Both the position numbers and the translations under genes were made by a program. Under the pieces are notes generated by a model. The model was not told the origin of the DNA. It saw nothing but the letters and a program-made list of their open reading frames with translations, and did no database searches. 36,638 nt of DNA from an uncultured bacterium (GTDB lineage: Bacteria; Patescibacteriota; Microgenomatia; UBA1400; PJMF01). The DNA is taken from the NCBI GenBank assembly GCA_903891335.1, contig CAITDX010000019.1:1-36638 (forward strand). Reading direction: 5' to 3'. This document shows positions 185 through 20,758 of this stretch, one piece after another (position 1 is the stretch's first letter; the number at the start of each line of letters is the position of its first letter).

Positions 185-1243
185 TTAGTAGGTCGGTAAA
201 AAGATCTTGTAATTATCTGGACCGATTTCAACTTTATCAAAACCGCGCTCAACAATAATCCGCGCTGCTTTACGAGCAGCACCTTGAATGGTGCGCTGTA
301 GCGTACGAATACCAGCGTCGAAACCAAGGGGACGAACCATTTTTTGCCACATTTCTTCCCGGATCACAAACTGATCTGGCTTAAGGCCAACTTCCTTGAG
401 CACCTTTGGCATCACATATTTCTTGGCGATGGCCACTTTTTCTTCATCAGTGTAAGAAGGCATGGTAATTTTTTCCATACGATCCATCACCGCAGTGGCA
501 ATCTTGCGGGTATTGTTACAAGTAGCTAAGAAAATTGCTTGCGAGAGATTGACTGGGTAGTTGATGTAGTCGTCAGTAAAGGCGTGATTCTGGGCCGGGT
601 CAAGCAACTCGACCAACACACCCATAATATCCATGTTGGCATCGTCAGCTCCACGATCAATTTCATCAAGCAAAATAATTGGATTCATCACTCCCGCCTC
701 ACAAACACCCCGCAAAACCTTGCCTGGCTCAGAGCCAAGTAAAAGGCGCGAATTGCCGCGTAATTCTTTGGCACTACCCATGCCACCAAAAGGAATACGG
801 ACTAGCTGACGATTAAGCGCCTCAGCCAGCGAATAGGCAAACGTAGTTTTACCAGTACCCACCAGACCGACCAATAGCAAAATTGGAGCAGAAAATTCTT
901 GATCTCCTAAGTTATTTTTTTGCAAATTCAGCACCGCTAAATACTCAAGAAAACGATCTTTCACTTCCTGCATACCGAAATGATGCTCATCAAAAACTGC
1001 TTTGGCCTTTTGGATGTCCAAAATATCCTCTGACTTTTTACCAAAAGGAATGCGCAAGCACCAGTCTACATACTTAGATACTTTTTCATACTTCTCGTCA
1101 TAGCTCCCAAGCTCTACACTGCGCTCAAGCGCCACGATTTCTTTTTTGAGCTGATAGCGCATTTCATCAGGAAGTTCTGCCTGTTCAACTTTGGCAGCTA
1201 AACCAGCAATTTCTTGGGCGAGAATTTCTTTGTAGTCAGACAT
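185..1243 (-). CDS. Lon-family AAA+ ATPase module without the S16 protease domain
   Basis: 352-aa ORF. Walker A is GLVGTGKTT and Walker B is ILLDEID. HHFGMQEVKDRFLEYLAV matches the conserved Lon segment just before the P-loop. The ORF stops just after the AAA+ lid (GIRTLQRTIQGAARKA...), where Lon proteases continue into the Ser-Lys protease domain. Confidence 0.8.
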   Translation of the reverse strand: MSDYKEILAQEIAGLAAKVEQAELPDEMRYQLKKEIVALERSVELGSYDEKYEKVSKYVDWCLRIPFGKKSEDILDIQKAKAVFDEHHFGMQEVKDRFLEYLAVLNLQKNNLGDQEFSAPILLLVGLVGTGKTTFAYSLAEALNRQLVRIPFGGMGSAKELRGNSRLLLGSEPGKVLRGVCEAGVMNPIILLDEIDRGADDANMDIMGVLVELLDPAQNHAFTDDYINYPVNLSQAIFLATCNNTRKIATAVMDRMEKITMPSYTDEEKVAIAKKYVMPKVLKEVGLKPDQFVIREEMWQKMVRPLGFDAGIRTLQRTIQGAARKAARIIVERGFDKVEIGPDNYKIFLPTY

Positions 1244-1246
1244 AGT

Positions 1247-1783
1247 CTAGTTGCGATAGCGCAAGCTAACTCCAACACCAAACATAATCATAGCTAGAGC
1301 AGCCAACAAATAAGTGTTGTCGAGAGCGCCTGAGACCGGCAGCGTTGCTGAACTCGTGCCACCCTTTGTAGCACTAGTGGTTGTGGTCACCGTTGGAGTA
1401 GGAGTGGCTGCAGCAGAACTGATTGTCAAAGCAAAGTTGAGACTCGTCTCACCAGTGGTACTAATTGTCACCTGATGAGTATCATAGGTCAGATTTGCTA
1501 GATAGGTCGACCAATCACCTGCGGCGTTGGCCGTAGATGAGTATGTCACATCATCAATCTTGACTGAAACAGATTTTGAAGCCTCTGCTTTACCATACAA
1601 ACTAAAGGAACGCAGTGAATAAGTGTATGCGGAAGTTGTCGAGCCGATACCTTTACCTGTCAGATCAGTGGTGCCTATTTTAGTCAACTCGAGCGCTCGA
1701 GCTACACCACTAGAAACAAAAAACATCGACAAAAAAGCTAGAAAAACTACAACTTGTTTACGCATACAGTTTCTACTATCCAT
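1247..1783 (-). CDS. Secreted surface protein with an LPXTG-type (LPVSG) sortase sorting signal
   Basis: N-terminal signal peptide (MRKQVVVFLAFLSMFFVSSGVARA) and a Thr/Ser-rich linker (TPTPTVTTTTSATKGG). The C-terminus has LPVSG, a hydrophobic stretch (LLAALAMIMFGVGVSL) and a basic tail (RYRN). The start could instead be Met7. Confidence 0.65.
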   Translation of the reverse strand: MDSRNCMRKQVVVFLAFLSMFFVSSGVARALELTKIGTTDLTGKGIGSTTSAYTYSLRSFSLYGKAEASKSVSVKIDDVTYSSTANAAGDWSTYLANLTYDTHQVTISTTGETSLNFALTISSAAATPTPTVTTTTSATKGGTSSATLPVSGALDNTYLLAALAMIMFGVGVSLRYRN

Positions 1784-1789
1784 TTAACA

Positions 1790-2725
1790 CTACTTACGAT
1801 GCTTTGTTAACTCCAAAATTTGATGATGACGCAATAGACCAAGCTTAGCCCCAAAGTACGCCACTACATTGCCAGCATTTTTGACTCCCCAAGCAATTGC
1901 CTCTTGATTTGACAAGCCGTATAGGAGAGCAGCCACATACCCCGCAGCAAAAGCATCGCCAGCCCCCGTACTATCAACAGAAACAGTTGATTGGCCAATA
2001 AATTCAAAGGTTTTCTTACCAAAAAGATGGACCTCGCCACCTGCCTTACCTTTGGTAATTACTACCTGAGGAAAGTTAAGTAAAATTTCTTCATGGAGCG
2101 GCTCAATGAGTGCCCATTCTTCTTGATTGACAAAAAAAACTTCACAAGGAATTTGCGCAATTGGCCAATTCTCCTCAAGTAATAAATCGAGTTCCTTGCG
2201 ACCAGGGTTCCAAGAAAGCTTGGTGTCTTGATTGCCACGCAGCACCTTGAAGATTTTATCAAGTGTTTCTTTGCGTCCACCGATGCTTGAAAGGTGAACC
2301 CACCGACTTTTGGCCAGCCAAAATGCCGGAATATCAAAAGGGTCAAGCAGAGAAGCGGCACCACGATGCACCATTGCCACTCGCTCTGAATTTTTAGCAA
2401 CTAAAATAACTGATCCACCAGTTCTTTCAAGTTTTTCTTGAATCAGTAGGTTGGTTGCTACACCTTCTTTTTGGAAATCACTAGTAATCAAATTAGCAAA
2501 CTCATCTCGACCAGTTTCAGAAATCACCGCTGCATGCAGTCCCAAGCGGGCAAAAGCCACCGCCGTATTGCTCGCTCCACCTCCAGTCATCATATGGAAA
2601 TCAGATAATTCCATCTTGTCTCCATAGGTGAGAATTTGCCGATCACCATCGCGATCAGCTTCCAGATCATCAGACTTGATGAAAATATCTAAAAGCGATG
2701 AACCAATTGAAATAGTATCAAACAT
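1790..2725 (-). CDS. PfkB-family carbohydrate/ribo-kinase
   Basis: 311 aa. It has the GG motif (TGGGASNTAVAFARLG) and the C-terminal PfkB signature DSTGAGDAFAAGY. Substrate cannot be read from the sequence. Confidence 0.8.
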   Translation of the reverse strand: MFDTISIGSSLLDIFIKSDDLEADRDGDRQILTYGDKMELSDFHMMTGGGASNTAVAFARLGLHAAVISETGRDEFANLITSDFQKEGVATNLLIQEKLERTGGSVILVAKNSERVAMVHRGAASLLDPFDIPAFWLAKSRWVHLSSIGGRKETLDKIFKVLRGNQDTKLSWNPGRKELDLLLEENWPIAQIPCEVFFVNQEEWALIEPLHEEILLNFPQVVITKGKAGGEVHLFGKKTFEFIGQSTVSVDSTGAGDAFAAGYVAALLYGLSNQEAIAWGVKNAGNVVAYFGAKLGLLRHHQILELTKHRK

Positions 2726-2770
2726 AGGGCAGTGCTAATACTCGTTGATGCAATCAGTGTACTACAATCG

Positions 2771-3391
2771 CTATGATTGACGCAAACGGCGCGCCGCCAT
2801 TTCCTCTTCAAAAATACGCAAGGCCACTTTGAATTCTTCTAAGTTTTCGACAATGCGATACACCTGTGCTTCCTTGTAGCCAATCATGAAATGTTTATGG
2901 GTAACATCAAGAAATTCGCGCCAAAATGCTCCGTATAAAATCAAAGGCTTATGATTGCCATAATATAAGTGCGCCAGCAACCAGGCAGTGGCCCACTCAC
3001 TCAGCGTGCCCGTACCACCCTTGAAACAAACAAACAAATCAGCATTATCCATCAAACCAAACATACGCTCGATATAATTAGCGGTTTTGATTTCTTTATC
3101 GACGATATTGTTGCCATCGCGCCCTTCAAACTCTGGTAAATCCTCTGGATAAAAAGTCACTGCTAGGGTTTTGCCGCCACCGGCTTTGGCACCGCGAGTT
3201 GCTGCCTCCATAATGCCTGGACCACCACCATTAATGACTACTTTACCGCGCTTGGCTACGTGCTTTGCCGCCTCAAATGCCTCTTTATAGGCTGGGTCTT
3301 CTTTATCAAGATCAGCACTGCCATAGAAGGCAATTTTGTCGATTTTACATAATCGATTGGATTTGGGAATCAGAACTTTTTTAGCTGACAT
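2771..3391 (-). CDS. LOG-family (TIGR00730) nucleotide phosphoribohydrolase-like protein
   Basis: 206 aa with the two LOG-family motifs GGGPGIMEA and KGGTGTLSEW (PGGxGTxxE type). Confidence 0.8.
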   Translation of the reverse strand: MSAKKVLIPKSNRLCKIDKIAFYGSADLDKEDPAYKEAFEAAKHVAKRGKVVINGGGPGIMEAATRGAKAGGGKTLAVTFYPEDLPEFEGRDGNNIVDKEIKTANYIERMFGLMDNADLFVCFKGGTGTLSEWATAWLLAHLYYGNHKPLILYGAFWREFLDVTHKHFMIGYKEAQVYRIVENLEEFKVALRIFEEEMAARRLRQS

Positions 3392-4049
3392 GGGACAGAA
3401 ATTCCTCTACTGCTTGCTTGTAATTACTTGCCTTGTTGAAGGCTGAGTTGGCAGTCACACTATCAGCTCCAGCTGCCTGTAGAGCAACGACCGTGTCATG
3501 ATTGACTCCACAATCAATGAAAATCTTCATTGGCTCACCTTTTTGAATTTGCTCACGGGTTGCTTTGATTTTGTCAAAAATCGATGGATGGAGTGACTGA
3601 CCAGAGCGACCAGCTTCTGCCCCAAGCAATAAAATTGCATCCATCCACTCCCAACTATTTTCCTCAATCTCATCAAGTGGCGTGTACAGATCGAGTGCTA
3701 AACCAGCTTTCCAATCTTGTTTTTTCACTTCCTCAAGGAAGGCCTCCTGATACGACATTTTTTCAATTTGACCAAAGACACTGCGAATGGGCAAATGGCG
3801 ACAATACTCTTCCATTTCCCAGACATAGTCCATCGGCTCTTCGGTCATCAAATGAAAATCAATTTGCAGCTCACCAAAATCAATATCAACTAAATCCTGA
3901 GGAGTGAAGGTGTGTTCGTCGGCAAAAACCCCATCGATGATATCAATCTGGACGGCTGGCAGAAGACCGCTTTGTTTTGCTTGCTCTATCTGTCTTTTTG
4001 CTAATTGCAAATCACCGGTTAATACATTTGCTGTGACATCGAGTTTCAT
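3381..4049 (-). CDS. Ribulose-phosphate 3-epimerase family protein (divergent)
   Basis: 222 aa. It aligns by eye to Rpe blocks: VQIDIIDG (Rpe VHFDVMDN), IDFHLMTEEP (IDVHLMV.P), IFIDCGV (LEVDGGV) and GADSVTANSAF (GAD.FVAGSAIF). The first metal-binding His is Gln and the PGFGGQ loop is altered. Overlaps LOG by 11 nt and rpiB by 4 nt. Confidence 0.55.
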   Translation of the reverse strand: MKLDVTANVLTGDLQLAKRQIEQAKQSGLLPAVQIDIIDGVFADEHTFTPQDLVDIDFGELQIDFHLMTEEPMDYVWEMEEYCRHLPIRSVFGQIEKMSYQEAFLEEVKKQDWKAGLALDLYTPLDEIEENSWEWMDAILLLGAEAGRSGQSLHPSIFDKIKATREQIQKGEPMKIFIDCGVNHDTVVALQAAGADSVTANSAFNKASNYKQAVEEFLSHVS

Positions 4050-4522
4050 TGATTCCTTTGTTGTTCATAGTGAGTAATTTGTTGTAGTCGTCGAGCGTGG
4101 CGCTCACTAGAGTCAACTGGCGTACTCATAAAGGTTTCAAAATACGCCGTCATTTGTGCTTCCGTCAAATAATCGCCACTAAACGCAATCACGTTGGCCT
4201 TGTTGTGACTCTTGGCGTGAGCGGCGATGGTTTCATTATAAATTTCAACTGCTCGCACTCCTAATACTTTATTGGCAGCAATTACCACTCCAGAACCAGA
4301 TCGACAAAAAACAATACCCAGCACCTGGGAATCTTGATCTTCGCTCATCGCTACGACTTTATGGGCGACTTGTAAAGCAAACTCAGGATAGTCATCATCT
4401 GGATCAAGTAGATACGCTCCGCAGTCCTCAACTTTGTAGTCGGGATGTTGCTTGACTAGATACGCTTTAAACGATTCTTTGAGAGCAAAACCGCCGTGAT
4501 CGCTGCCGAGATAGATATGCAT
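4046..4522 (-). CDS. rpiB: Ribose-5-phosphate isomerase B (RpiB/LacAB family)
   Basis: 158 aa. IYLGSDHGGFALKE and CRSGSGVVIAANKVLGVRA are typical RpiB motifs. Confidence 0.85.
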   Translation of the reverse strand: MHIYLGSDHGGFALKESFKAYLVKQHPDYKVEDCGAYLLDPDDDYPEFALQVAHKVVAMSEDQDSQVLGIVFCRSGSGVVIAANKVLGVRAVEIYNETIAAHAKSHNKANVIAFSGDYLTEAQMTAYFETFMSTPVDSSERHARRLQQITHYEQQRNQ

Positions 4523-7840: not shown

Positions 7841-7863
7841 AAGAGAAAATCTTACCTAAAATG

Positions 7864-10083: not shown

Positions 10084-12432
10084 TTATCTTCTCCCGCCTC
10101 TGTCGCCGCCGCCAAATCTGCGACCGCCACCGAAACCACCACGGTCTCCGCCTCGACGATCACCGCCTCGGTCACCGCCGAAACGACGTCCGCCACGGTC
10201 GCCACCAAAACCGCCTCGACCACCAAATCCACCACGACCATTGTCTTCGCGATCACCTCTGGCAGCAGCTTTTTCTTTGGCTTCTGCTTCTTGTTCTTTG
10301 GTGAGTAGGGTTAAGGCAATTTTGCCCTCTGGGTTGTATTCTTTGACACGGACGTGAATCTGATCGCCAACCTGATAGAGCTCGCTGGCATCCTTAACAT
10401 ACTCAGTTGACATGTTGGAAACGTGGACGAGACCCTCGCGACCAGGCAAGAATTCGACAAACACTCCGTAGCCTTCGACACGAGTGACGATACCATCAAA
10501 CTCATCATCAACCTCAACTTCGCGAACGATATTGTCGATCATCTTCATCGCTTTATCAATTGCTTCCTGATTTGGAGATGACACATTGATGATGCCGAGT
10601 TTGTTTTCTTTATCTTCCTCGACATTGACCTCTGCACCGGATTTCTCAATGATATCCTTGATGACTGAGCCACCAGAGCCAATAACGGCACCGATTTTCT
10701 CAGCTGGAATGGTGATTTGAGACACTTTTGGAGCATACTGACTCAAAGCAGTACGAGGTTCACTAATGCATTTCATCATCTCGCCCATAATGTGCAAGCG
10801 ACCCTCAAGAGCTTGACCCAGTGCCTTGACTAAGACTTCTTTGGGAATACCCTTGAGTTTGATATCCATCTGAATCGCAGTGATGCCATCCTTGGTGCCG
10901 GCAACTTTGAAGTCCATGTCACCGACGTGATCTTCCAGACCTTGAATGTCGGAGAGGATGACAAATTTCTCACCATCGGACATCAAGCCCATGGCAATAC
11001 CTGCCACTGGTTTCTTGATTGGTACGCCAGCTGCCATCAAGGCCATGGTCGAACCACAGACTGAAGCCTGAGAAGTTGAACCATTGGAACTCATGATGTT
11101 GCTCACCACGTGAATGGTGTAAGGGAAAGCCTCTTGGCTAGGAATCATAGGTAGGAGAGCGCGCTCTGCTAAGGCTCCATGACCAATTTCACGACGCTTG
11201 GGATAGCCAATCCGACCAGCTTCACCAGAGGCATAAGGTGGCATATCATAGTGGTGGATGTAGTGGCGAGTTTGCTCACCAGACATATCCTCAATCAATT
11301 GACCTAGGGAAGGATCGCCGAGGGTGACAACGGTGAGGGCTTGGGTCGCGCCACGCTTAAACATGGCACTCCCGTGTACTCTAGGCAATAGATCGACTTC
11401 ACACCAGATGGGGCGGATTTCGGTGGTGGCGCGACCATCAGGGCGAACTTCGTCCTCGATGATCATGCGGCGAGCTTCGGCCTTCATCAGGTCGTGGAAA
11501 ATGCCCTTGAGCATGCCTTCGCTGAGCTCACTCACTTCACCTTCAGCAAGCTTAGCAGCATCATCGTCAAGAATTTGCTTGATGAGTTCGTCTAAACCGG
11601 TTGGTTCGAGACGACCTTCTTTATTGACCATATCGTTGACTTCCTGAGCGTAAGTTTTGGCTAAGTTGTCGACAAGCGCCTGCTTTTTCGCAGCAACTTC
11701 TGGATCAACTGCATCCACCAACTCAAGTTTGGCTTTGCCAATGGCAGCCACGACAGTCTCAATTTGAGCACAGACTTTAGTTGCCTCTTCTTGTGCACGA
11801 AGCAACGCTTCAATCATGACTGACTCAGCGACTTCGTTGGCACCAGCCTCGACCATCACGATGGAATTCTTGGAAGCAGACACAATTAAATCGAGATCAT
11901 TGCCTTCAATTTGACTGCGTTTGGGATTGATCAGGAATTGACCATCCACACTCAAACCAAGACGCATGCCAGCCACTGGACCGTCAAAAGGAATGTCAGA
12001 AATTTGCAAAGCCACGGCGGTGCTCAGTAAGGCAATCATGTCTGGCTCGTTCTCACCATCATAAGAGAGCACAGTATTGATGACCTGCACTTCATTAGTG
12101 ATGCCATCAGGAAACAATGGACGCATGGTACGATCGATCACCCGTGCACGCAGCACAGAGTCATCAGTAGGACGACCATCACGCTTGACCCAACGAGAAC
12201 CCTTGATGATGCCACCGGCAAAAAGTTTCTCAATGAATTCTACTGATAAAGGGAAGTAACCAAGATTGACCTTGCGACCAAGAGCCACAGTGGTGTGGAC
12301 AATGGTTTCGCCACAAGTGGCTAGCACCGCGGCACTCACCTGCTCACTAAATTTACCGACTTCGAGGTGAATTTCTTTGTCACCCACGACAATAGTTTGC
12401 GTATATGTATTTCCATATTTTGGATACGACAT
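10084..12432 (-). CDS. pnp: Polyribonucleotide nucleotidyltransferase (PNPase) with a C-terminal RGG-repeat tail
   Basis: 782 aa with two RNase PH-like cores plus KH and S1 regions (..GAVIGSGGSVIKDI.., ..FDGIVTRVEGYGVFVEF..), followed by a 58-aa Arg/Gly/Asp/Phe tail. Confidence 0.95.
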   Translation of the reverse strand: MSYPKYGNTYTQTIVVGDKEIHLEVGKFSEQVSAAVLATCGETIVHTTVALGRKVNLGYFPLSVEFIEKLFAGGIIKGSRWVKRDGRPTDDSVLRARVIDRTMRPLFPDGITNEVQVINTVLSYDGENEPDMIALLSTAVALQISDIPFDGPVAGMRLGLSVDGQFLINPKRSQIEGNDLDLIVSASKNSIVMVEAGANEVAESVMIEALLRAQEEATKVCAQIETVVAAIGKAKLELVDAVDPEVAAKKQALVDNLAKTYAQEVNDMVNKEGRLEPTGLDELIKQILDDDAAKLAEGEVSELSEGMLKGIFHDLMKAEARRMIIEDEVRPDGRATTEIRPIWCEVDLLPRVHGSAMFKRGATQALTVVTLGDPSLGQLIEDMSGEQTRHYIHHYDMPPYASGEAGRIGYPKRREIGHGALAERALLPMIPSQEAFPYTIHVVSNIMSSNGSTSQASVCGSTMALMAAGVPIKKPVAGIAMGLMSDGEKFVILSDIQGLEDHVGDMDFKVAGTKDGITAIQMDIKLKGIPKEVLVKALGQALEGRLHIMGEMMKCISEPRTALSQYAPKVSQITIPAEKIGAVIGSGGSVIKDIIEKSGAEVNVEEDKENKLGIINVSSPNQEAIDKAMKMIDNIVREVEVDDEFDGIVTRVEGYGVFVEFLPGREGLVHVSNMSTEYVKDASELYQVGDQIHVRVKEYNPEGKIALTLLTKEQEAEAKEKAAARGDREDNGRGGFGGRGGFGGDRGGRRFGGDRGGDRRGGDRGGFGGGRRFGGGDRGGRR
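10087..10260 (-). repeat. Low-complexity coding repeat (RGGFGG / DRGGRRFGG units)
   Basis: Translates to RGDREDNGRGGFGGRGGFGGDRGGRRFGGDRGGDRRGGDRGGFGGGRRFGGGDRGGRR. The GC-rich ccgcc/ccacc periodicity is visible in the DNA. Confidence 0.9.
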
Positions 12433-12647: not shown

Positions 12648-12670
12648 AACCCCGCCGAAGTGGCGGGGTT
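12648..12670 (-). terminator. Rho-independent terminator after rpsO
   Basis: 9-bp GC-rich stem aaccccgcc / ggcggggtt with loop gaagt. On the minus strand it is followed by TTTTGTTTCT, about 50 nt after the rpsO stop. Confidence 0.8.
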
Positions 12671-12722: not shown

Positions 12723-12992
12723 TTATTTACTCAAACCTAATTTTTCGATCAACTTGCGATAGCGGTCTTCACTGCGAGAAAGCAAGAAATTGAGTAAGCG
12801 ACGACGTTTGGACACTTGTTTGAGCAAACCCTTGCGGGAATGGTTGTCTTTTTTGTGCAATTTCAAGTGCTCAGTCAACTGTTCAATTGAAGCAGTTAAA
12901 AGCGCCACCTGCACCTCTGGTGAACCAGTGTCACCCTCAAAAAGGGCAAAATCCTTGATAATTGAAGCTTTGTTTTGTTTTGCTAATGCCAT
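12723..12992 (-). CDS. rpsO: 30S ribosomal protein S15
   Basis: 89 aa. ..[46 protein letters not shown].. is typical S15. Confidence 0.95.
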
Positions 12993-13065
12993 AGTTCCTT
13001 TCGCCTTTATCCGCCCAGTGCTTCAAACCGGAGGGAAAAGTAAGCATCAATTGATATAGATTGAT

Positions 13066-13074
13066 AGTATAGCA
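13066..13074 (-). promoter_or_regulatory. Putative rpsO promoter (extended -10 TGCTATACT)
   Basis: The minus strand reads ttttttgTGCTATACTatc about 75 nt upstream of the rpsO ATG, with a T-rich upstream tract and no good -35. Confidence 0.45.
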
Positions 13075-13113
13075 CAAAAAAGGTAAAAATACGAGATAAA
13101 GCCAAGAATTTAA

Positions 13114-13515
13114 CTATGCTTCGTCGTCAACTAAACCAGCAAATTTATCGAGAAGCCAATGACCTGATTTTGTTGCAGTGGTAGACTGCGTTGAAGGTTT
13201 ATTTTGCGTATTTGCTAACACAAATTCCAAGGCACCGCGCTCTGCATCATTCAATAAGTCATTAGTAAATTCTTTTAATTGAGTGAGATTGTTAATCATC
13301 TCAATGTCTCTACTCTCTAAAATTTGTTTTTCTAAATTTACAGAGGCTTCTTCTAAATACTTGGCTATTTCATCTGCATCCGCTGAAGAGATAGAAGAAT
13401 ATTTATCTTCAGTCAGTAAACCAGACAAATAGTCAATTCTTTCACTCGGAGCAGTAGACTGACCAATCGCATCCCTAAGTAAAGAAAAAAATGAACCTGA
13501 ATCTTGGTTATTCAT
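13114..13515 (-). CDS. Small acidic hypothetical protein (133 aa, no Cys), partner of the 876-aa protein
   Basis: AGGAA SD 7 nt upstream, 21 nt after the stop of the upstream gene. It looks helical and Asp/Glu-rich with a Ser/Thr/Gln-rich linker (NKPSTQSTTATKS). No signal peptide or TM segment. Confidence 0.6.
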   Translation of the reverse strand: MNNQDSGSFFSLLRDAIGQSTAPSERIDYLSGLLTEDKYSSISSADADEIAKYLEEASVNLEKQILESRDIEMINNLTQLKEFTNDLLNDAERGALEFVLANTQNKPSTQSTTATKSGHWLLDKFAGLVDDEA

Positions 13516-13536
13516 AACGTATTCCTATTAAGTCTT

Positions 13537-16167
13537 TTATACTACGTTCACATCCTCAATCGTCTCAGCCTTATTAAAGGTATTAAATGATCTGTTACCA
13601 GGCATCAAATTCCAAGTAGGTCGAGCTAGAATCAAGAAAGGAACTATTTTAACTACCTTGTCCAAAGCATCTTTTACGTTTGGTGCATTATTTTCAAGGA
13701 ATTGAGTAGCCAGCCACCAAATTCCCTTGAGACCTACCTCAGCATTTTGGAAAGCAATATCAGCGTTAGCTCCTGATTCAGCACTTGGCAATCCACTTTC
13801 TGCGGCGATTTTGGCAATTTCAGCAGCACCCTGCTGCATCTTAGATAAGTCTGAGAGAGCTCCTCTCATTGAAGTCTCCGCAGCTTGCGCCCACTCTCCT
13901 GCCACTGCATCAACCCCATTAGCAATACCTAGTGCCATAAATACCGCGGCAGCACCGGCTCCAAGAGCAGCAATTTGTTCCCACATTTTATCTAATTTTG
14001 AACGCTCAAAAATTTGTCTAAGTTCCATCTTAGCAAAGCCACGCTGAGCATCTTGCAGAAGAAGCGCGGTAGCCTCTTGTATCGCAAGATTACTGCGCTC
14101 GACACCGCTCTCCATGGTCTTTAGCTGTTTTTTAAAGTGTTCAACAGCAAGAGTTGATTCTTTTCTTCTTTGATCTGTATTCTCAGCAACCTCATCTACA
14201 GATTGACGTTTGCTCCCCTCAGTGAGCATTCTCCACACTCGGCTATTTTGAGCAAGTTTTGTGTCAGGACCAAGAATCTTACGCATTAACTCAGCTGTTC
14301 TACTAAATACCGACCTATTAAGATGTCTCTCCATCGCATCTCTGCTCATGTATTGCTGAGGAATATTAGAGCTATCAATCTGATTATCCATCCATTGTTC
14401 TTCTAGAGTAAAAGAATTCTCAGCTAATGCGGACACCTCTTCTCCGCCCATCTTTTTCAAACCCTCATTAACTTCAGCCAAAACGCCTTTACCGTCAAGC
14501 ATTTTTTGTGCTCTCGTTTTCAGTTCCTTCAAAAGTTTGCCGGCATTCTCACGGAACATAATACCTCCAGTAACCGAATCAATTCCTGCAGAAGCCAATT
14601 CGAGTGGAGATAATACAGCTGAGAGAGCCAAACCCTTGCCTTCAGTAATCGAGATTGTGTCATTGGCTCGGGCAACCATCATCGCTGCTCGCATGAAAGC
14701 AGATTCGGCACCGCGCAAAATAGTCGCTGCCTTAACAACTTCTTTCTCGCCGTATTCTTCTGGGTTAGCGAGGATGTTATTGAGATTTTCGACTGCCATC
14801 TCTTTGGCAACAACTGCTGAACTCAAATCATTAACTGCGCTTTCAGCAATTGTCCCCTCCATGTTATTAACGGCGAAACCAACTTCCGTGCCCAAATCCT
14901 CGGCAAAAGTAAGAAAACCTTTTCCAATTCTCTTTGCCATAGGCACAGCCGCTTCTTTAAACCATTCAGGAAGAATAATATCCACATCGACTGCAGTCGC
15001 AGTCAAAACTTTTTGCCAATTTTGAGCATTGTCAAAATCAAATCCTAAATATTTCTTTTGTGCATTTTGATACTGCTCTAAAGATAGATCTTGCTGTCTC
15101 TGGAAATATTTTTGGAAATGCTCGGCTTGAACTCGACGATCTGCTTTCACAAAAACACCTTTTGTCATGAACTGTGGTAACTCACTACCTTCTTCAAGTG
15201 CCTTGCTTTCATCCGCTGTCAAAGGAGCACTCTTGCTATCTGCTGCGACTTCGGTCATTAGCTGCTTACGCAAATCTCCAAGTTCTGCGGTGCTTAAAAC
15301 ACCAGCTCGCCACATTTCCAAAACTGAGGCGGTGTCACCAGAACCAACAATCTTTGCTCTAAGCTCAACTGAAATATCAGACATTTTTGCTTCACGAGCG
15401 GCATCAGGAGCAACAAACTCATGAAGTCTTCTTCCAACGGCACCATGAAACAAAGCATCATCAGCCAAGGCTAAGACCTTACGCACTGGACCACCGGCCA
15501 TAGATGACCAAAACTTAAACTTATATTTATCTGGATCTGTTGAAGAAACGCCTAAGTCAGCTGTCGATCTAAATTTGTTAGCCTTATCTAAATCAGCTTG
15601 AGCTCTATGTAGCTCTTTTAAACTTGACCAGGTCTCACGCTTTGCTTTGTTTGCTTCTGTTATAAAAGCCTTAATAGCTTCCTTATCTTTGTCCTTGCTA
15701 TTCAGATAGGCTTCCCACAAAGCATTTATCTCTGTTTCCATCTCCTCTGAGTTTTTAAACTGTTTACGCACTTCCATTAACTGGTTGACCATTTCTCGCA
15801 AACTCTCAACGCCAGAAGCCATAAACTCCACTTGTTTCTCCTGTCCTTGTCCAGTTAATTCGCGATCAGCTATTGTTTGAAATACTTCAGCAGCTCCTTT
15901 TTCCTTTAAAAATTTAGCTAAGGTTTTTAATTCTCTGCTATCTTGGCTTAATCCAAGTTCAACTGCTAAAAACCTAGTGAGGTTTTCGGCATCAGCAAGA
16001 ACACTCACTTCACCATCTTCAAGTCCCTTTTGTTGACTTTTCAAATCTGCCCAAACCAAAGGCTGCTTCGTTTCTACCCACGAAAGCATGAAGACTGTCA
16101 GCAACTGCTGGTAATGCTCGATTAATCGACGGTTGAAGATCTTTGGCTTGTGGTTGTGGAGCTGCAT
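13537..16167 (-). CDS. Large orphan alpha-helical protein (876 aa, no Cys) with C-terminal hydrophobic/glycine-zipper segments
   Basis: Long uninterrupted ORF with no recognisable catalytic motif or signal peptide. It contains many charged, coiled-coil-like stretches. Hydrophobic segments are IAALGAGAAAVFMALGIANGVDAVAG and VVKIVPFLILARPTW. The start codon is uncertain because the SD is weak. Confidence 0.7.
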   Translation of the reverse strand: MQLHNHKPKIFNRRLIEHYQQLLTVFMLSWVETKQPLVWADLKSQQKGLEDGEVSVLADAENLTRFLAVELGLSQDSRELKTLAKFLKEKGAAEVFQTIADRELTGQGQEKQVEFMASGVESLREMVNQLMEVRKQFKNSEEMETEINALWEAYLNSKDKDKEAIKAFITEANKAKRETWSSLKELHRAQADLDKANKFRSTADLGVSSTDPDKYKFKFWSSMAGGPVRKVLALADDALFHGAVGRRLHEFVAPDAAREAKMSDISVELRAKIVGSGDTASVLEMWRAGVLSTAELGDLRKQLMTEVAADSKSAPLTADESKALEEGSELPQFMTKGVFVKADRRVQAEHFQKYFQRQQDLSLEQYQNAQKKYLGFDFDNAQNWQKVLTATAVDVDIILPEWFKEAAVPMAKRIGKGFLTFAEDLGTEVGFAVNNMEGTIAESAVNDLSSAVVAKEMAVENLNNILANPEEYGEKEVVKAATILRGAESAFMRAAMMVARANDTISITEGKGLALSAVLSPLELASAGIDSVTGGIMFRENAGKLLKELKTRAQKMLDGKGVLAEVNEGLKKMGGEEVSALAENSFTLEEQWMDNQIDSSNIPQQYMSRDAMERHLNRSVFSRTAELMRKILGPDTKLAQNSRVWRMLTEGSKRQSVDEVAENTDQRRKESTLAVEHFKKQLKTMESGVERSNLAIQEATALLLQDAQRGFAKMELRQIFERSKLDKMWEQIAALGAGAAAVFMALGIANGVDAVAGEWAQAAETSMRGALSDLSKMQQGAAEIAKIAAESGLPSAESGANADIAFQNAEVGLKGIWWLATQFLENNAPNVKDALDKVVKIVPFLILARPTWNLMPGNRSFNTFNKAETIEDVNVV

Positions 16168-16212
16168 TTGTTTCTGTCATAGGAACTTTCACATGAAAAA
16201 CTACTTGTTTCC

Positions 16213-16241
16213 ATTAAAAAACAATTTTCATGTCAAGTCAA
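16213..16241 (-). promoter_or_regulatory. Sigma70-type promoter for the 876-aa gene
   Basis: Minus strand: TTGACT (16236-16241), a 17-nt spacer, then TTTAAT (16213-16218). This predicts a 5' UTR of about 40 nt. Confidence 0.6.
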
Positions 16242-16380
16242 ACAAGCAAAATAAAAATGATTACTTTTGAATCATTTTGTTATATTTTTGAAACAGAATC
16301 GCACTCTGCTTAATGTAAAAAACCGAGAAAGTTACTAATTGCTCACTACAATGAATCTTTCATTCACGAAAGACAACTCT

Positions 16381-17865
16381 CTATCCCTCTTTTCGATACG
16401 CCACGATCACGTCGCCCACTTGAAAATCCAATTTCTTGTTTTTGAAAGTCAAACCACCTTCATTTTTGGTACCAATGCGCTCAATGTCTTCCTTGCCATG
16501 CTTCATCGACTTGAGGACAGGATTGGCGATAATTTCTTCACCACGCTTGAGGTGTAGTAAATCACTTTTCTTGATTTCACCAGTGCGCACACGCACACCT
16601 GCAATCACCTCACCCTTCATCTCAAACATTTGCAAAATCTCTGCCTCACCAGTCACCACCTCATCAAAAGTTGCATCCATCAACTTAAGCATGCTCTTCT
16701 GTAAATCTTCAATCAAATGATAAATAATATTGTATTCTTTAATCTTGACTCCTAAATTCTTAGCGGTTTTTTTGACTGTGCCATTAACCTTGATGTTAAA
16801 AGCGATCAGCAGCACCTTGCCATCGCGAGCCAACTCCAAGTCTTGCTCAGTAATCTGCCCCACACCACAAGCAATCACATCAACACTATCGCGATCAAGA
16901 CTTTGTAAAATCGCTTCAAGCGTACCTTTGACATCAGCCTTAATGATCAACTTAATCTTCTCTCGTTCACCCAACATCACGTCAAGATCGACATTCTCCC
17001 AGTTGATCTCATCACCCATGCGAAATGATTTCTCGAGTTCACCAGTCTTGGCGAATTCATCAGTCAAATCAGCATCATAGCTTCTCGAGCTATCGCGAAT
17101 CACACTCCCTACTTCTGGCACCTCTTCCAGACCAATAATTTCAGCTGGCTCACCAGGCAAAACCTGTTGCAACGACTGACCGCGCTCATTCTCTAGCAGG
17201 CGCACGCGCCCAGTAATCTCATCGACCACCAAATCTTGACGCACCGCCAAAGTGCCTGAACGGACAATCACCCGAGCCACCGAACCCTTGTTTTTTTCTT
17301 TACTTGACTCGATAACCACTGCCTCAAGCGGCGCTGCCGGATCAGCCTTCAGTTCCAAAAGATCAGCCATCACCACAATCGTCTCGAGGAGTTTATCCAC
17401 TCCCTGACCAGTGCGAGCTGACAATTCGATCGCCTCGATATCACCACCATATTCTTGAACCAACACCCCTGCTTCTGCCAACTGCGATTTCACCACTTCT
17501 AAGTGTAAATCGGGCAAATCAATTTTATTGATCGCCACGATAAAGGGCACTTGGCTTTCTTTGATGAAACGAATCGACTCGATAGTTTGAGGCTTGACGC
17601 CATCATTGGCAGCCACCACCAGCACCACTAAATCAGTAATCTGAGTACCACGCTGACGCATCTTGTTGAAAGCGGCGTGACCAGGAGTATCGATAAAGGT
17701 AATTTTCTGAGCAGCAAACTCGACCTGGTAGGCACCGATATGCTGGGTGATGCCGCCAGCTTCACGAGCAGCGACATTGCTATGACGAATGTAATCCAAG
17801 AGCGAGGTCTTGCCGTGATCGACATGACCCATAATCGTAATGATTGGCGCTCTTTTCTCTAACAT
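16381..17865 (-). CDS. infB: Translation initiation factor IF-2, minimal form
   Basis: 494 aa. The P-loop GHVDHGKT begins at residue 13, and DTPGH and NKID are present, followed by domains II to C2. AAGGA SD upstream. Only 40 nt separate it from the nusA stop, so no N-terminal region can be encoded. Confidence 0.9.
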   Translation of the reverse strand: MLEKRAPIITIMGHVDHGKTSLLDYIRHSNVAAREAGGITQHIGAYQVEFAAQKITFIDTPGHAAFNKMRQRGTQITDLVVLVVAANDGVKPQTIESIRFIKESQVPFIVAINKIDLPDLHLEVVKSQLAEAGVLVQEYGGDIEAIELSARTGQGVDKLLETIVVMADLLELKADPAAPLEAVVIESSKEKNKGSVARVIVRSGTLAVRQDLVVDEITGRVRLLENERGQSLQQVLPGEPAEIIGLEEVPEVGSVIRDSSRSYDADLTDEFAKTGELEKSFRMGDEINWENVDLDVMLGEREKIKLIIKADVKGTLEAILQSLDRDSVDVIACGVGQITEQDLELARDGKVLLIAFNIKVNGTVKKTAKNLGVKIKEYNIIYHLIEDLQKSMLKLMDATFDEVVTGEAEILQMFEMKGEVIAGVRVRTGEIKKSDLLHLKRGEEIIANPVLKSMKHGKEDIERIGTKNEGGLTFKNKKLDFQVGDVIVAYRKEG

Positions 17866-17905
17866 ACCGTCTTCCTTTTCTTGACTGTCGTAACTTTACA
17901 ATCGA

Positions 17906-19159
17906 TTACACTTGATCGCGACTTTGCTCTTCTTTCAAATAGGCATCAACGCGAGCAAGCAAGATTTCCTGATCAGCTGGAGTGATTTCATTCATCTTAA
18001 CCCATTTATCGCGGAAACGCACTAAATCGTTGAGCGTAGTCAATTTGTGCTGCACCAACACCTCACGGGTATCAGCAGCCAAACCAAAAGTGTCGATTTC
18101 GTATTCTTCTTTACCGGTTACGGCTGATTGGATCTGACCAGTGGCTGATTTAACCGTGATTTGATAGCCAGTTAATTTAGCAGCCAAACGGACGTTTTGA
18201 CCACCACGACCAATGACGAGCGACAGTTGGTCATCAGGAGCAGTCACCGTCACTTGGCGATTTTTCTGATCAACTTCGATCTGCAAGCCTTCAGCAGGAG
18301 CCAACGCACCTTGCAAGAGCAAGCGATCGTCTGCTGAGAAAGGAATGATGTCAACTTTTTCGTTGTTAAGTTCTTCAATCACTTTTTGGACACGCACGCC
18401 GCGCTGACCCACACAAGAACCAACTGGATCGACACCATCTTGAGTGGATTTAACGGTCAATTTAGTGCGCACGCCAGCTTCACGAGCAATGGCGACAATT
18501 TGCACTGCACCTGAAGCAACTTCTGGCACTTCTCGCTCAAATAATTTACTGACTAAGTCAGCACTGGAACGGGAAACAATAATCTGCTCACCGCGGACAG
18601 TTTCACTAATTTCTTTGATCAAAACGGCCAAGCGCTGATTGAGGCGATAAAATTCACCACGCATCTGCTCCTCGGGAGGCATAATCGCCTGACCACGACC
18701 GATATCCATAATCACACTGCGACCCTGCATGCGCAGGACTTGACCAGTGACAACTTCACCCATGCGATCACGATAGGCAGCAATGATGGTGTCACGCTCA
18801 CTACGACGAATGCGCTGGAGAATTACCTGCTTGGCGGTTTGGGCGGCAATCCGACCAAAACCAGCTGGAGTAACATCTTCAGCTTTTTTCTCATCCCACT
18901 CTAGAATCTCAAGGGTTTCCTCATCTTTTTTGATGGCTGGAGCACGCAAAATGCGAGCACTACCATTATTTTTGTCAAGATCAACGTAGTAATGGAAATT
19001 CTCATCAAGATCACCCATTTGCTTGCGATACGCTGATACTAAAGCCTGACGAATAGCTTCATAAATATCTTCTGGATCAATTTTGCGCTCGGTCGCAATC
19101 TGAGTGATCGCGGCAGCAAATTCAGTGCGGACGAGGTTGGCATTTTGAAGAGTAGCCAT
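17906..19159 (-). CDS. nusA: Transcription termination/antitermination factor NusA
   Basis: 417 aa with an N-terminal domain, S1 (GEVVTGQVLRMQGRSVIMDIG) and two KH regions (GVDPVGSCVGQRGVRVQ.., LVIGRGGQNVRLAAKLTG), plus a short C-terminal extension. Confidence 0.9.
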   Translation of the reverse strand: MATLQNANLVRTEFAAAITQIATERKIDPEDIYEAIRQALVSAYRKQMGDLDENFHYYVDLDKNNGSARILRAPAIKKDEETLEILEWDEKKAEDVTPAGFGRIAAQTAKQVILQRIRRSERDTIIAAYRDRMGEVVTGQVLRMQGRSVIMDIGRGQAIMPPEEQMRGEFYRLNQRLAVLIKEISETVRGEQIIVSRSSADLVSKLFEREVPEVASGAVQIVAIAREAGVRTKLTVKSTQDGVDPVGSCVGQRGVRVQKVIEELNNEKVDIIPFSADDRLLLQGALAPAEGLQIEVDQKNRQVTVTAPDDQLSLVIGRGGQNVRLAAKLTGYQITVKSATGQIQSAVTGKEEYEIDTFGLAADTREVLVQHKLTTLNDLVRFRDKWVKMNEITPADQEILLARVDAYLKEEQSRDQV

Positions 19160-19323: not shown

Positions 19324-19581
19324 CTAATAGACTTGACCATGAGTCCCAATTGCTAAAAGATAGATATTTTCATCAACAAAACGAACCAAGATACGAATAC
19401 TCATGTTCACGGAGATTGAATAATCCTGGCGATTTGATAATTTATGTAAACGCAGTGAGGGATGATCTGGAGCAACAAGCAGTAGTTTTAATGTTTTGGT
19501 AATTTGTTTCTTTAAGCGGGGGTTCTTGGCAGCTATTTTCACCATGCTTTTATGAAAGGTTGAAGAAATAACCAAATTCAT
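19324..19581 (-). CDS. RelE/ParE-superfamily type II toxin
   Basis: 85 aa. HPSLRLHKLSNRQDYSISVNMSIRILVRFVDENIYLLAIGTHGQVY has the typical C-terminal pattern of this superfamily. The start overlaps the antitoxin stop (TAATG). Confidence 0.75.
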   Translation of the reverse strand: MNLVISSTFHKSMVKIAAKNPRLKKQITKTLKLLLVAPDHPSLRLHKLSNRQDYSISVNMSIRILVRFVDENIYLLAIGTHGQVY

Positions 19582-19829
19582 TAAGATAAGCCTTCAAAAA
19601 CTTGATCCACGTATTGGGCTACTGCCTGAGCATCTTTTAAGGTTTTTGCTTGACCGCTGCGATGTTCACTAATTGCTTGGTTTGCCAAAGAATTTAACTG
19701 GATTTCAGTTAAAGTTTGGCGTAAAGCAGTGCGCACCAGATCACTAAAGGATGCAAAATAGCCAGCCTGGATTAATTGATCAGCTTGTAACTTCAACTGA
19801 CTCGGCAATGATACATTTATTGTATGCAT
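19581..19829 (-). CDS. ParD-like ribbon-helix-helix antitoxin
   Basis: 82 aa. The N-terminus INVSLPSQLKLQADQLIQAGYFASFSDLVRTALRQ matches the ParD/CopG RHH pattern (VSLP...G.Y.S.SE.VR.ALR). Confidence 0.75.
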   Translation of the reverse strand: MHTINVSLPSQLKLQADQLIQAGYFASFSDLVRTALRQTLTEIQLNSLANQAISEHRSGQAKTLKDAQAVAQYVDQVFEGLS

Positions 19830-19838
19830 AATGTATGA

Positions 19839-19867
19839 ATTATGGCATAAATGAGCATTATTTACAA
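19839..19867 (-). promoter_or_regulatory. Putative TA promoter with palindromic operator candidates
   Basis: Minus strand: TTGTAA (19862-19867, overlapping the dnaJ stop), 17 nt, CATAAT (19839-19844), 9 nt, ATG. The palindrome TATGCATA (19823-19830) covers the start codon and the near-copy TATGCCATA (19841-19849) covers the -10. Confidence 0.55.
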
Positions 19868-20758
19868 GTCTAGCTTCGCCAATTGCTCAAGTGCTTTCTT
19901 CTGTTCACGCGTCAGTTTCTCTGGCACCTGCACGATCAGGCGAACATACAAATCACCTTTGCCGCGACTCTGTAAATGTTGGATGCCTTCGCCGCGGAGG
20001 CGAATCAGCGAGTGCGAAGCGGTGCCGGGTCGCACCTTCAGCTTAAACTTGCCTGAGAGTGTCTCTACTTCGATCTGACCACCAAGAGCGGCAGTGCTCA
20101 AAGAGATTGACTCATCCACAAAAACATCATAGCCATCGCGCTTGAAGCGAGGGTGGCTACCCACATCAATGGAGATATCAAAATCACTGAAACGAATTCG
20201 CGTGCCATCGTTGGCTCCGGGGGGGACTTTGATCTTTTGGCGCTTGCCATCGATCTCAACTTCTTTGGTCACTCCATTGACTGCATCCATGAAATCGATG
20301 CGGAGGGTGTAGTGGGGGCGGCGGCGCCTGGCGCCGCCGCCAAACCCACCACCAAAAAATTGTTCAAAAATATCAAAAGGATCGCCAAAATCAAACTGCG
20401 CGCCATCGGCGCCACTAGCTCCGCCAGCACCACCTGAAGATGAGTAAGACCAAGTAAATGGCCCGCCAGCTGCTCCAGAAAAACCACCAAAGCCACCAAA
20501 AGGACCAGCTCCACCACCCATACCTGATGAAGGATCAAAAGCCGCATGACCGAACTGGTCATAGGTTTGCTTTTTCTTAATATCGGACAGGACCTGATAA
20601 GCTTCGTTAATTTCTTTGAACTTGTCTTCTGCCCCCGCTTCTTTGTTGCGATCAGGGTGAAATTTTAGCGCCAACTTGCGATATGCCGACTTAATCTCTG
20701 CCGCACTGGCAGTTTTACTCAGACCCAAAACTTCGTAGTAATCGCGTTTCGCTGACAT
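19862..20758 (-). CDS. dnaJ: J-domain co-chaperone, class B (CbpA-like; no zinc-finger domain)
   Basis: 298 aa with a J domain (DYYEVLGL...HPDRN), a long G/F region and C-terminal substrate-binding domains. It contains no cysteine at all, so the CxxCxGxG repeats are absent. Confidence 0.85.

Follow-up and report, generated by a model that had tools for sequence, protein, structure and literature searches.

In mitofusin/Fzo1, BDLP, atlastin, LegC of Legionella, and IncA of Chlamydia, a large cytoplasmic helical body precedes two hydrophobic helices that lie close together toward the end of the chain, with long coiled-coil helices next to the membrane segments. Translocators of type III secretion systems (T3SS) are helical, Cys-poor, and devoid of a signal peptide; they combine a hydrophobic helix pair with a small acidic partner encoded alongside, a class II chaperone (IpaB/IpgC, YopB/SycD, SipB/SicA). 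The pore-forming colicins Ia, E1, and A have a long helical body with an Ala/Gly-rich hydrophobic region near the C-terminus. In tail-anchored and SNARE-type proteins, a hydrophobic helix directly continues a coiled-coil one and is preceded by basic residues. Phage tape measure proteins combine great length, a helical structure, and few Cys with hydrophobic segments rich in Gly and Ala. As for small adaptors, a layout of folded domain, flexible linker, and terminal docking peptide is exemplified by the XB peptide of SspB, the C-terminal peptide of FtsZ, and the amphipathic membrane-targeting helices of MinD/FtsA.

The present study concerns a gene pair in the window, i.e., the whole 36,638-nucleotide stretch of DNA that was analyzed. 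Its large product shares the above features with each of the larger systems, and its small product has the layout of the adaptors. Still, to judge from its sequence, the large protein is an orphan, resembling no known protein. Our best reading, a tentative one with a little below an even chance, is that the large protein is a hairpin-anchored membrane scaffold and the small one its cytoplasmic adaptor, together forming a lineage-specific housekeeping module. The two genes are laid out as follows.

16168 to 16380, minus strand: intergenic region between infB and the large gene, with a putative promoter-like TTGACT ... TTTAAT kept in the closest homologue, L013
16022 to 16180, minus strand: conserved N-terminal coding segment MTETNAAPQPQAKDLQPSINRALPAVADSLHAFVGRNEAAFGLGRFEKSTKGT, 53 codons, in a frame that differs from that of the main ORF
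16019 to 16024, minus strand: frameshift site ACT TGA, with one extra base relative to L013
13537 to 16167, minus strand: large-protein ORF, 876 codons, genuine protein from about residue 50 on according to family alignments
13540 to 13611, minus strand: C-terminal tail of the large protein, residues 853-876, with conserved N853, P856, G857, and R859
13114 to 13515, minus strand: partner gene, 133 aa, acidic, starting 21 nt past the large-gene stop
13132 to 13158, minus strand: C-terminal peptide of the partner, WLLDKFAGL, residues 120-128, after a Ser/Thr-rich linker

Residues 1-49 of the large ORF are out-of-frame sequence. The true family N-terminus of the window copy begins at the ATG at 16180, and the conserved segment encoded there matches the N-termini of P0002 and P0004-P0012. 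The extra base, at about 16021-16022, results in a TGA stop in the N-terminal frame of the large gene; with the N-terminus rejoined, the reconstructed protein has 880 residues. Programmed +1 frameshifting at ACT-TGA was set aside, since the shift is missing from all homologues and, by our own reasoning, re-pairing from ACU to CUU would not be slippery. Homology was not restored either when UGA was taken as a sense codon, as worked through by hand from the sequence. With its frameshift, the window copy might be inactive. Upstream, the TTGACT ... TTTAAT stretch was not called by a consensus promoter scanner, and no terminator-like site was found from infB to rpsO. At the opposite end of the protein, the terminal VNVV is kept in the close clade.

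A profile search of 1.84 billion representatives yielded 12 clusters of the large family, 789-926 aa in length except for one 374-aa fragment. The partner family comprises 18 clusters. A word-indexed search for homologues, based on the 15-sequence alignment, added nothing to the six close homologues, and a metagenome scan with a closer alignment gave four loci. The gene pair has been found only in a narrow, Pacebacteria-like group of CPR/Patescibacteria. The pairing is obligate: a partner of 122-157 aa lies 7-21 nt downstream of the large gene in every locus with downstream sequence (the window, L001, L002, L003, L005, L006, L009, L010, L013, L014, and L016). Furthermore, the two proteins diverge at equal rates, with large/small identities of 55.5/56.2, 56.1/57.9, and 78.4/77.1%. 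Both evolve faster than NusA, IF-2, and PNPase, whose identities in the same comparison are 84-93%. The adjacency and the equal divergence bear out the original prediction in naming the small acidic gene as the partner of the large protein.

The window is part of a Pacebacteria-like CPR chromosome, with the gene order hrcA-grpE-dnaK-dnaJ-nusA-infB-large gene-small gene-rpsO-pnp. In the clade of the window, the pair occupies one fixed chromosomal site among core genes, which is consistent with vertical inheritance. Across the family, it occurs in six housekeeping contexts (infB/rpsO; trxB; mltG/rpoB; Lon-like AAA/udg-rnj-ftsK; liaF-like/smpB; rplJ-rplL), and the differing surroundings indicate that it moves as a unit. 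It was present once per contig examined. No neighboring gene is consistently linked across the loci; therefore, the scaffold role that we propose is a guess. The usual gene between infB and rpsO, of ~120-130 aa, encodes RbfA. A divergent RbfA was considered for the partner and rejected, since none of eight partner sequences matched RBFA (a KH-type domain) at E <= 1.

Several properties that had been predicted for the large protein hold. Neither the 876-codon ORF nor the 133-aa ORF contains a Cys. The Cys background is low, however, with 44 Cys among 10,034 residues (0.44%) in the other ORFs of the window; at this background, the probability of finding none is ~0.02 for 876 residues and ~0.56 for 133. 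The absence of Cys from the large protein is thus only mildly unusual for the window, where a 646-aa ORF (DnaK), a 298-aa ORF (DnaJ), a 595-aa ORF, and a 340-aa ORF are also Cys-free. Members of the large family have 0-2 Cys each. As predicted, there is no signal peptide, an N-terminal hydrophobic signal being found neither in the large ORF nor in the reconstructed N-terminus. The chain is also helical, with 78% helix and 2% strand in an AlphaFold2 model built from 15 sequences. This alignment gave a pLDDT of 65.7 (with only six close homologues, pLDDT was 38 and the model unusable), although the confidence stays low, at ~45-55, at hydrophobic segment 1 and the C-terminus.

Scans of 15 members and eight partners against Pfam, NCBIfam, PHROG, and PADLOC found no family common to the members, and PDB sequence-profile searches returned noise only. 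A Foldseek search of the 15-sequence model against PDB and BFVD gave nothing at E <= 0.001 or TM > 0.14; the list consists of generic long-helix proteins (MukB, cohesin, PrgA, and tape measures), with TM <= 0.14. A full-text literature search found nothing relevant. In contrast to the mitofusin, BDLP, and atlastin group, visual inspection of the family consensus shows no GTPase/P-loop motif, and the Pfam and NCBIfam scans of the 15 members found no dynamin- or mitofusin-like GTPase family. The protein also differs from mitofusin, BDLP, atlastin, LegC, and IncA in having no sequence or fold match with them and in the ~85-residue loop of paired amphipathic helix that separates its hydrophobic stretches, where those proteins have a short turn.

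The interval 13612-13971, on which the original prediction centered, spans residues 733-852 precisely; within it, AALGAGAAAVFMALGIANGVDAVAG begins at 733, followed by GIWWLATQFL from 815 and VVKIVPFLILARPTW from 838. The elements of this region are as follows.

13981 to 14004, minus strand: motif R-S-K-L-D-K-M-W, residues 722-729, directly before segment 1
13912 to 13974, minus strand: hydrophobic segment 1, residues 732-752, Ala/Gly-rich and uniformly apolar, a candidate transmembrane helix
13657 to 13911, minus strand: residues 753-837, two amphipathic helices with a break at 792-793 beside the conserved G792-L793-P794; acidic, pI 4.3
13612 to 13656, minus strand: hydrophobic stretch 2, residues 838-852, VVKIVPFLILARPTW, weak in the window copy and stronger in some relatives

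In all 15 aligned members, an apolar segment follows R-x-K-L-D-K-M-W, with R722, L725, and D726 invariant throughout, and a weaker apolar stretch comes ~100 residues further on. The position of segment 1 is kept and its sequence is variable. Its previous description as glycine-zipper-like is loose: 17 of 25 residues are Ala or Gly, with an Ala stripe at 733/737/741/745/749, and such a composition gives small-xxx-small in almost any register. On the 19-residue Kyte-Doolittle (KD) mean, segment 1 of the window copy reaches 1.85, soluble ORFs of the window peak at or below 1.51, and its clear membrane proteins lie at 2.0-2.85 (2.03 for the membrane helix of an ATP synthase b-subunit-like 161-aa ORF). 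Stretch 2 contains K, R, and P in the window copy and reaches only 1.12, within the soluble range. Of the two hydrophobic stretches originally predicted, the first therefore passes the membrane threshold, whereas the second falls below it in this copy. The predicted late membrane-insertable hairpin stands as far as the conserved late apolar element and the fitting charge pattern are concerned, but its hydrophobicity is borderline, toward the lower limit for true membrane helices, KD >= 1.6 being reached by segment 1 in nine of the 15 members and by segment 2 in four.

The charge pattern is the same throughout the 15 members: segment 1 is preceded by 4-7 K/R within 15 residues and followed by 0-2, and segment 2 is followed by 2-5. 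This asymmetry fits the positive-inside rule for a hairpin with both ends inside (N-in/C-in). Trp residues flank segment 1 on both sides (W729 and W759), as is typical of membrane helices. Segment 1 lacks amphipathic periodicity, and the next helix has a strong 3.6-residue periodicity. Taken from these patterns, the large protein is probably located in the cell membrane via its late hydrophobic segment. The analogy to tail-anchored proteins does not strictly apply: segment 1, whose last residue is 752, lies ~125 residues from the C-terminus (124 of the 876 remain), whereas the single transmembrane helix of a tail anchor lies within ~30-50. A SNARE-type relationship is likewise not borne out, since the only match to Synaptobrevin (Pfam) was sub-threshold (E = 0.015) and confined to one of the 15 members.

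According to our best reading, the first ~730 residues of the all-helical, ~880-aa protein would be cytoplasmic. Segment 1 (732-752) would cross the cytoplasmic membrane outward, residues 753-837 would form an acidic, amphipathic, antiparallel two-helix stalk on the extracytoplasmic side, and the weaker segment 2 (838-852) would return, with the short basic tail ending up inside. The acidic partner, presumably translated from the same transcript, would stay in the cytoplasm. Its disordered, Ser/Thr-rich linker would carry the terminal (W)LLDK(L/F)AG(L/I), whose docking site may be either the large protein or the membrane. The pair would serve as a scaffold and adaptor attached to the membrane rather than as a toxin.

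The partner has a pI of 4.26 and no hydrophobic segment (maximum KD 0.2), and it consists of a helical body, a variable Ser/Thr-rich linker, and a ~9-residue amphipathic peptide at or near the C-terminus. No part of the partner family is better conserved than this peptide, (W)LLDK(L/F)AG(L/I). We infer a physical interaction between the two proteins. The layout recalls SspB, FtsZ, and MinD/FtsA, to which the partner has no homology; to our knowledge, the peptide matches none of their motifs.

The strongest alternative, to which we give a sizeable minority chance, is that the large protein is a helical scaffold that is entirely soluble in the cytoplasm. In that case, segment 1 and stretch 2 would be the tightly packed core of a long antiparallel hairpin or of an alacoil/alanine-zipper bundle, buried in a dimer or tetramer and not in lipid, and the small protein would still be the docking partner. 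The marginal hydrophobicity of the segments is in favor of this explanation. When segment 1 is simply summed on the Hessa biological hydrophobicity scale, 14 of the 15 members fall at ~0 to +5 kcal/mol, and P0015 reaches +8.4. A charged residue interrupts the segment in four members (E in P0002, P0005, and P0014; K in P0015), and in 11 of 15, stretch 2 scores no higher than soluble proteins do. The AlphaFold2 model also speaks for it, as a single unbroken helix of ~100 residues (689-791) passes through segment 1 and is paired with a second long helix (794-854), an antiparallel pairing that is deduced from helix boundaries and not seen in the coordinates. The two-residue joint between these helices would bring segment 1 next to segment 2, which suits the membrane hairpin as well. 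Small-residue stripes at i, i+4 favor tight helix-helix packing, and both the lack of a signal peptide and the cytoplasmic housekeeping context agree with a soluble protein. Against it, segment 1 is apolar on all faces and more hydrophobic than every soluble ORF of the window, the K/R asymmetry holds at both segments in 15 of 15 members, and the flanking Trp residues are placed as in membrane helices.

A more specific form of the membrane scaffold, which we regard as unlikely, would be a CPR-specific envelope device. Here, a cytoplasmic platform of ~730 residues, loaded via the docking peptide of the small adaptor, would bear, across the membrane, a ~6 nm two-helix stalk outside the cell with a conserved G-L-P...G...D at its tip. 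Such a device might link the interior of an ultra-small episymbiont to the cell wall, the surface layer, or the host contact zone; it might, for instance, serve as a tether, relay signals, or take part in the acquisition of lipid or host material.

Very improbable, in our view, is a reading along the lines of the analogies in the original prediction, in which the large protein would be a pore-forming toxin or a translocator, secreted or contact-dependent, and the small acidic one would serve it as a chaperone or immunity factor. A toxin of this kind could be Cys-free and all-helical, without a signal peptide, and could carry a late hydrophobic helix pair; the obligate small acidic partner and the faster evolution relative to the neighbors would also suit it. 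The partner profile even gives a weak match to the chaperone-type STI1 domain, though this is sub-threshold (E = 0.0099 over 44 helical residues) and a lead only. However, those analogies found no significant or consistent match in Pfam, NCBIfam, PADLOC, PHROG, PDB, or Foldseek. The Foldseek search of the AlphaFold2 model gave no fold at E <= 0.001, and solved pore-formers did not rise above noise. The colicin and T3SS-translocator families, including the colicin pore-domain model, are assumed to be within Pfam-A and were not scanned individually. In contrast to the T3SS translocator pairs, no member falls into any Pfam family, and the eight partner sequences have no significant Pfam match and hence neither a TPR signature nor a chaperone family. 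No secretion-system genes, T3SS genes included, were seen in the window or in the loci read, which are contig fragments with a core housekeeping context, and CPR cells are not known to carry a T3SS. Compared with the ~40-residue hairpin within the 10-helix bundle of colicins, the large protein has one ~21-residue helix and a weak one. Immunity proteins of pore-formers are normally membrane proteins, and those of colicins are membrane-embedded and usually plasmid-encoded; the partner is soluble and acidic, and no plasmid relatives were found. The genes are chromosomal and syntenic, at a fixed core-gene site in the window's clade and in one copy per contig examined. In other words, there is no sign of a toxin or pore-former, and that reading is unsupported.

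A domesticated tape-measure-like or other mobile-element protein has a negligible chance and was rejected, for although tape measure proteins dominate the non-significant BFVD list, these matches have TM-scores <= 0.14 and E >= 0.0086, only one of 15 members matches a PHROG family below E = 0.001 (an unnamed one that is not shared, no matched family being annotated as tape measure), neither tblastn against 50,697 phage records and 72,556 plasmids nor the IMG/VR viral contigs gave a relative, and no phage genes lie nearby and no tail-gene cluster at any locus read.

A large part of bacterial diversity belongs to the CPR/Patescibacteria, whose lineage-specific proteins are mostly without an assigned role. 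The present study provides a cleanly delimited two-gene module from this group, always paired and set within core gene-expression operons. Its probable membrane anchor and its conserved docking peptide offer handles for studying topology, complex formation, and localization. Whichever way the hydrophobic segments are placed, the pair is not the toxin or translocon that had been suggested by analogy. If the large protein is soluble, it would be one more orphan helical scaffold. If it does form a membrane-spanning stalk, it would be a new structural element of the poorly understood CPR cell envelope.

The large gene and its small partner constitute a genuine orphan two-gene module, confined to a narrow CPR group, whose family matches nothing described. 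The minus strand carries almost all long ORFs of the window, and their order is typical of a bacterial chromosome. The genes, identified by eye from their translations, are as follows.

Window: hrcA, grpE, dnaK and dnaJ
19324-19829, minus strand: overlapping 82-aa and 85-aa genes between dnaJ and nusA, resembling an RHH-type antitoxin and a small toxin (kept at the same position in the related locus L002, 6268-6776)
Window: nusA, then a short infB (16381-17865, minus strand, 494 aa)
13537..16167, minus strand: large ORF, 876 codons
13114..13515, minus strand: partner ORF, 133 codons
Window: rpsO, then pnp with an RGG-rich tail (10084..12432, minus strand)
After pnp: two unknown genes and sodA
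Farther along: a cluster of ATP-synthase-like genes, plus an FtsH-like membrane AAA gene of 595 aa

Among named relatives, the one nearest to this locus is a 'Candidatus Pacebacteria' MAG (UBA6180), and a second relative is labeled 'Patescibacteria group bacterium'. These relatives, together with the chromosomal gene order, identify the window as CPR/Patescibacteria DNA, neither phage nor plasmid.

The classical arrangement of this region is nusA-infB-rbfA-truB-rpsO-pnp. In the window run (12723-19159), rbfA and truB are missing, and the pair fills their slot, as it does in the relatives' loci L001, L002, and L013 (the closest homologue). The partner was considered as RbfA and rejected, having no Pfam RBFA match. 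Several neighboring genes are unusual in their own right. IF-2 starts at the G domain without an N-terminal extension, likewise in L001 and L002. The PNPase has an Arg/Gly-rich C-terminal tail (10084-10260, GGFGGRGGFGGDRGGRRFGGDRGGDRRGG...), a feature shared by its L001 and L002 orthologues. Among the profiled 2-kb windows, the one at 10-12 kb peaks in GC (0.497). DnaJ (19862-20758, minus strand) is devoid of cysteine over its 298 residues and hence of the customary CxxCxGxG zinc-finger domain, though its J domain and an extended Gly/Phe-rich region remain. In L013, a Fic-domain gene (7266-8309, 347 aa) absent from the window lies between rpsO and pnp.

The genes flanking the module vary by lineage: infB / rpsO; trxA-trxB; ruvX-mltG / rpoB; Lon-like AAA / udg-rnj-ftsK; liaF-like / smpB; and rplJ-rplL. 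Judging by ORF order, sizes, and one identical peptide, the block ahead of the module in locus L010 (1225-5700: rpiB-like, 220-aa, LOG-like, sugar kinase, small membrane protein, and 352-aa Lon-like AAA genes) appears syntenic with window 4522..185 (minus strand). In L010 the module directly follows the AAA gene; the window contig ends there, with the module 12 kb away. The varied flanks and the module's absence from this block of the window indicate that the pair is the conserved unit and that it has shifted from one housekeeping operon to another. Between infB, the pair, and rpsO, nothing terminator-like was found; the sole clear terminator lies 3′ of rpsO (12648-12670, minus strand; strong hairpin of 9 pairs, 7 of them GC, with a T-run). 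An extended -10-like element (TGcTATACT) occurs between the partner gene and rpsO (13040-13113, minus strand). Upstream of the large gene, the intergenic sequence (window 16200-16260, minus strand; L013 3640-3715) is well conserved between these two genomes, GTTTGACTTGA ... TTTAATGGAAACAAGTAGTTTTT, their proteins being 78% identical. It may represent a dedicated promoter or leader; a consensus promoter scan made no call there.

A word-indexed search for the large protein returned six proteins only (55-100% identity), and an HMMER profile, run exhaustively against 1.84 billion cluster representatives, matched 12 clusters, all of 789-926 aa except a 374-aa fragment. The L014 member (885 aa), reached via its partner, aligned to the family profile with an hhalign E of 8e-100. 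Across 15 sequences (19-78% identity), 12 positions are invariant (G72, L130, A175, Q190, P400, R485, G486, G651, S652, R722, L725, and D726), which points to a defined fold, not a generic coiled coil. Scans of Pfam, NCBIfam, PHROG, and PADLOC found no family common to the members, and PDB profile searches gave noise only. When the AlphaFold2 model with pLDDT 65.7 was compared with PDB and BFVD by Foldseek, the matches were all generic long-helix proteins (TM ≤ 0.14). Residues 510-540 (~14548-14640, minus strand; KGLALSAVLSPLELASAGIDSVTGGIMFRE) are among the best-conserved stretches and nearly invariant in the close clade; they are moderately hydrophobic (Kyte-Doolittle score, KD, 1.22), yet their AlphaFold2 pLDDT is very low (34-39), making them a candidate binding site or folds-on-binding segment.

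The '876-aa protein' opens with ~49 residues of wrong-frame translation. All homologues start M-S/A/P-E ... ER-F-LGRF-KSE, and the window encodes this conserved 53-codon N-terminus in another frame, from ATG 16180 (minus strand) to a TGA at 16021-16019. A one-base insertion near 16021-16022 (ACT TGA, minus strand) splits it from the main ORF; L013 is one base shorter here, and deleting one base yields an 880-aa protein. The public annotation begins at an internal Met (P0001, 850 aa). The extra base may reflect misassembly or a recent pseudogenising mutation; recoding is unlikely.

The original prediction, of a cysteine-free helical protein with a late hydrophobic hairpin and an acidic partner, was largely correct as an observation. 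Neither ORF encodes Cys, helix accounts for 78% of the better AlphaFold2 model, and the partner has a pI of 4.26. The stated coordinates 13612-13971 correspond exactly to residues 733-852, the three quoted peptides starting at 733, 815, and 838. Because Cys is scarce in this genome (0.44% of residues in the other window ORFs), its absence from 876 residues has P ~0.02; absence from 133 residues is unremarkable (P ~0.56). The DnaK, DnaJ, and FtsH-like ORFs are likewise Cys-free, and the large-protein family has 0-2 Cys per ~870 residues. The depletion is therefore real but mild, and usual among long helical proteins. Of the two hydrophobic stretches, the first (segment 1, residues 732-752) stands out, whereas the second (stretch 2, residues 838-852; KD 1.12) is not membrane-grade in the window copy.

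Several features that recur across the family favor a probable membrane element in the large protein. The 19-residue mean KD of segment 1 (1.85) exceeds that of the soluble window ORFs (≤1.51) and falls below clear membrane helices (2.0-2.85). An R-x-K-L-D-K-M-W motif always precedes an apolar segment, 17-21 residues long and rich in small residues, conserved in composition, not in sequence. Segment 1, flanked by W729 and W759, lacks amphipathic periodicity; in the adjoining helix (753-791), a 3.6-residue period is pronounced. All 15 members have 4-7 K/R in the 15 residues before segment 1 and 0-2 in the 15 after, and a second apolar stretch ~100 residues downstream is followed by 2-5 K/R, a pattern that matches the positive-inside rule for a putative N-in/C-in hairpin. 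AlphaFold2 places helices at 689-791 and 794-854, with a two-residue gap beside the conserved G792-L793-P794. From these boundaries, antiparallel packing would bring segment 1 (center ~742) beside stretch 2 (center ~843) and would leave residues 753-837 as a putative two-helix stalk of ~6 nm, acidic in character (pI 4.3). However, plain summation on the Hessa scale puts segment 1 at ~0 to +5 kcal/mol in 14 of 15 members, four members carry a charged residue within it, AlphaFold2 confidence there is only ~45-55, and KD reaches 1.6 in just 9/15 (segment 1) and 4/15 (stretch 2).

Wherever downstream sequence exists (window, L001, L002, L003/L004, L005, L006/L007, L009, L010, L012, L013, L014/L015, and L016/L017), a 122-157-aa ORF begins 7-21 nt past the large-gene stop. 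This partner family comprises 18 clusters, and no Pfam domain was found in the eight aligned partners scanned. One homologue (P0031, L016 383-757) bears the JGI name 'flagellar basal body rod protein FlgG', which is probably wrong because its orthologues are all hypothetical or unnamed and neither P0031 (precomputed) nor the eight partners have such a domain. In three genome comparisons, large/small identities were 55.5/56.2, 56.1/57.9, and 78.4/77.1%, i.e., matching divergence rates; NusA, IF-2, and PNPase were 84-93% identical. The most conserved partner element is a peptide, (W)LLDK(L/F)AG(L/I), at or near the C-terminus after a variable Ser/Thr-rich linker (DVLNRFVGL in L010, SLLDKFAGI in P0035). 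Body, linker, and terminal peptide resemble the adaptor-like layout of SspB or the FtsZ C-terminal peptide, by analogy and not membership. By a similar analogy, the peptide could instead be a MinD/FtsA-type amphipathic membrane tag.

We tentatively rank first a membrane scaffold anchored by a hairpin and paired with a cytoplasmic adaptor, which would dock via its terminal peptide. Somewhat less probable is a fully soluble scaffold, in which the Ala/Gly-rich helices form a tightly packed oligomerisation core. The original analogy with pore-formers, translocators, or immunity proteins is very unlikely: generic resemblance alone remains, against the core-operon context, a chromosomal site fixed within the window clade, no homology or secretion genes found, and a partner without a membrane segment. 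A tape-measure or mobile-element origin ranks last and is effectively excluded; searches of phage records, plasmids, and IMG/VR contigs found no relatives of the large protein.

CPR genomes commonly hold orphan helical proteins, and the broad architecture (helical body, late hydrophobic hairpin, small partner) belongs to a familiar general type. That the stalk spans the envelope is unlikely; if it did, the module would be more noteworthy.
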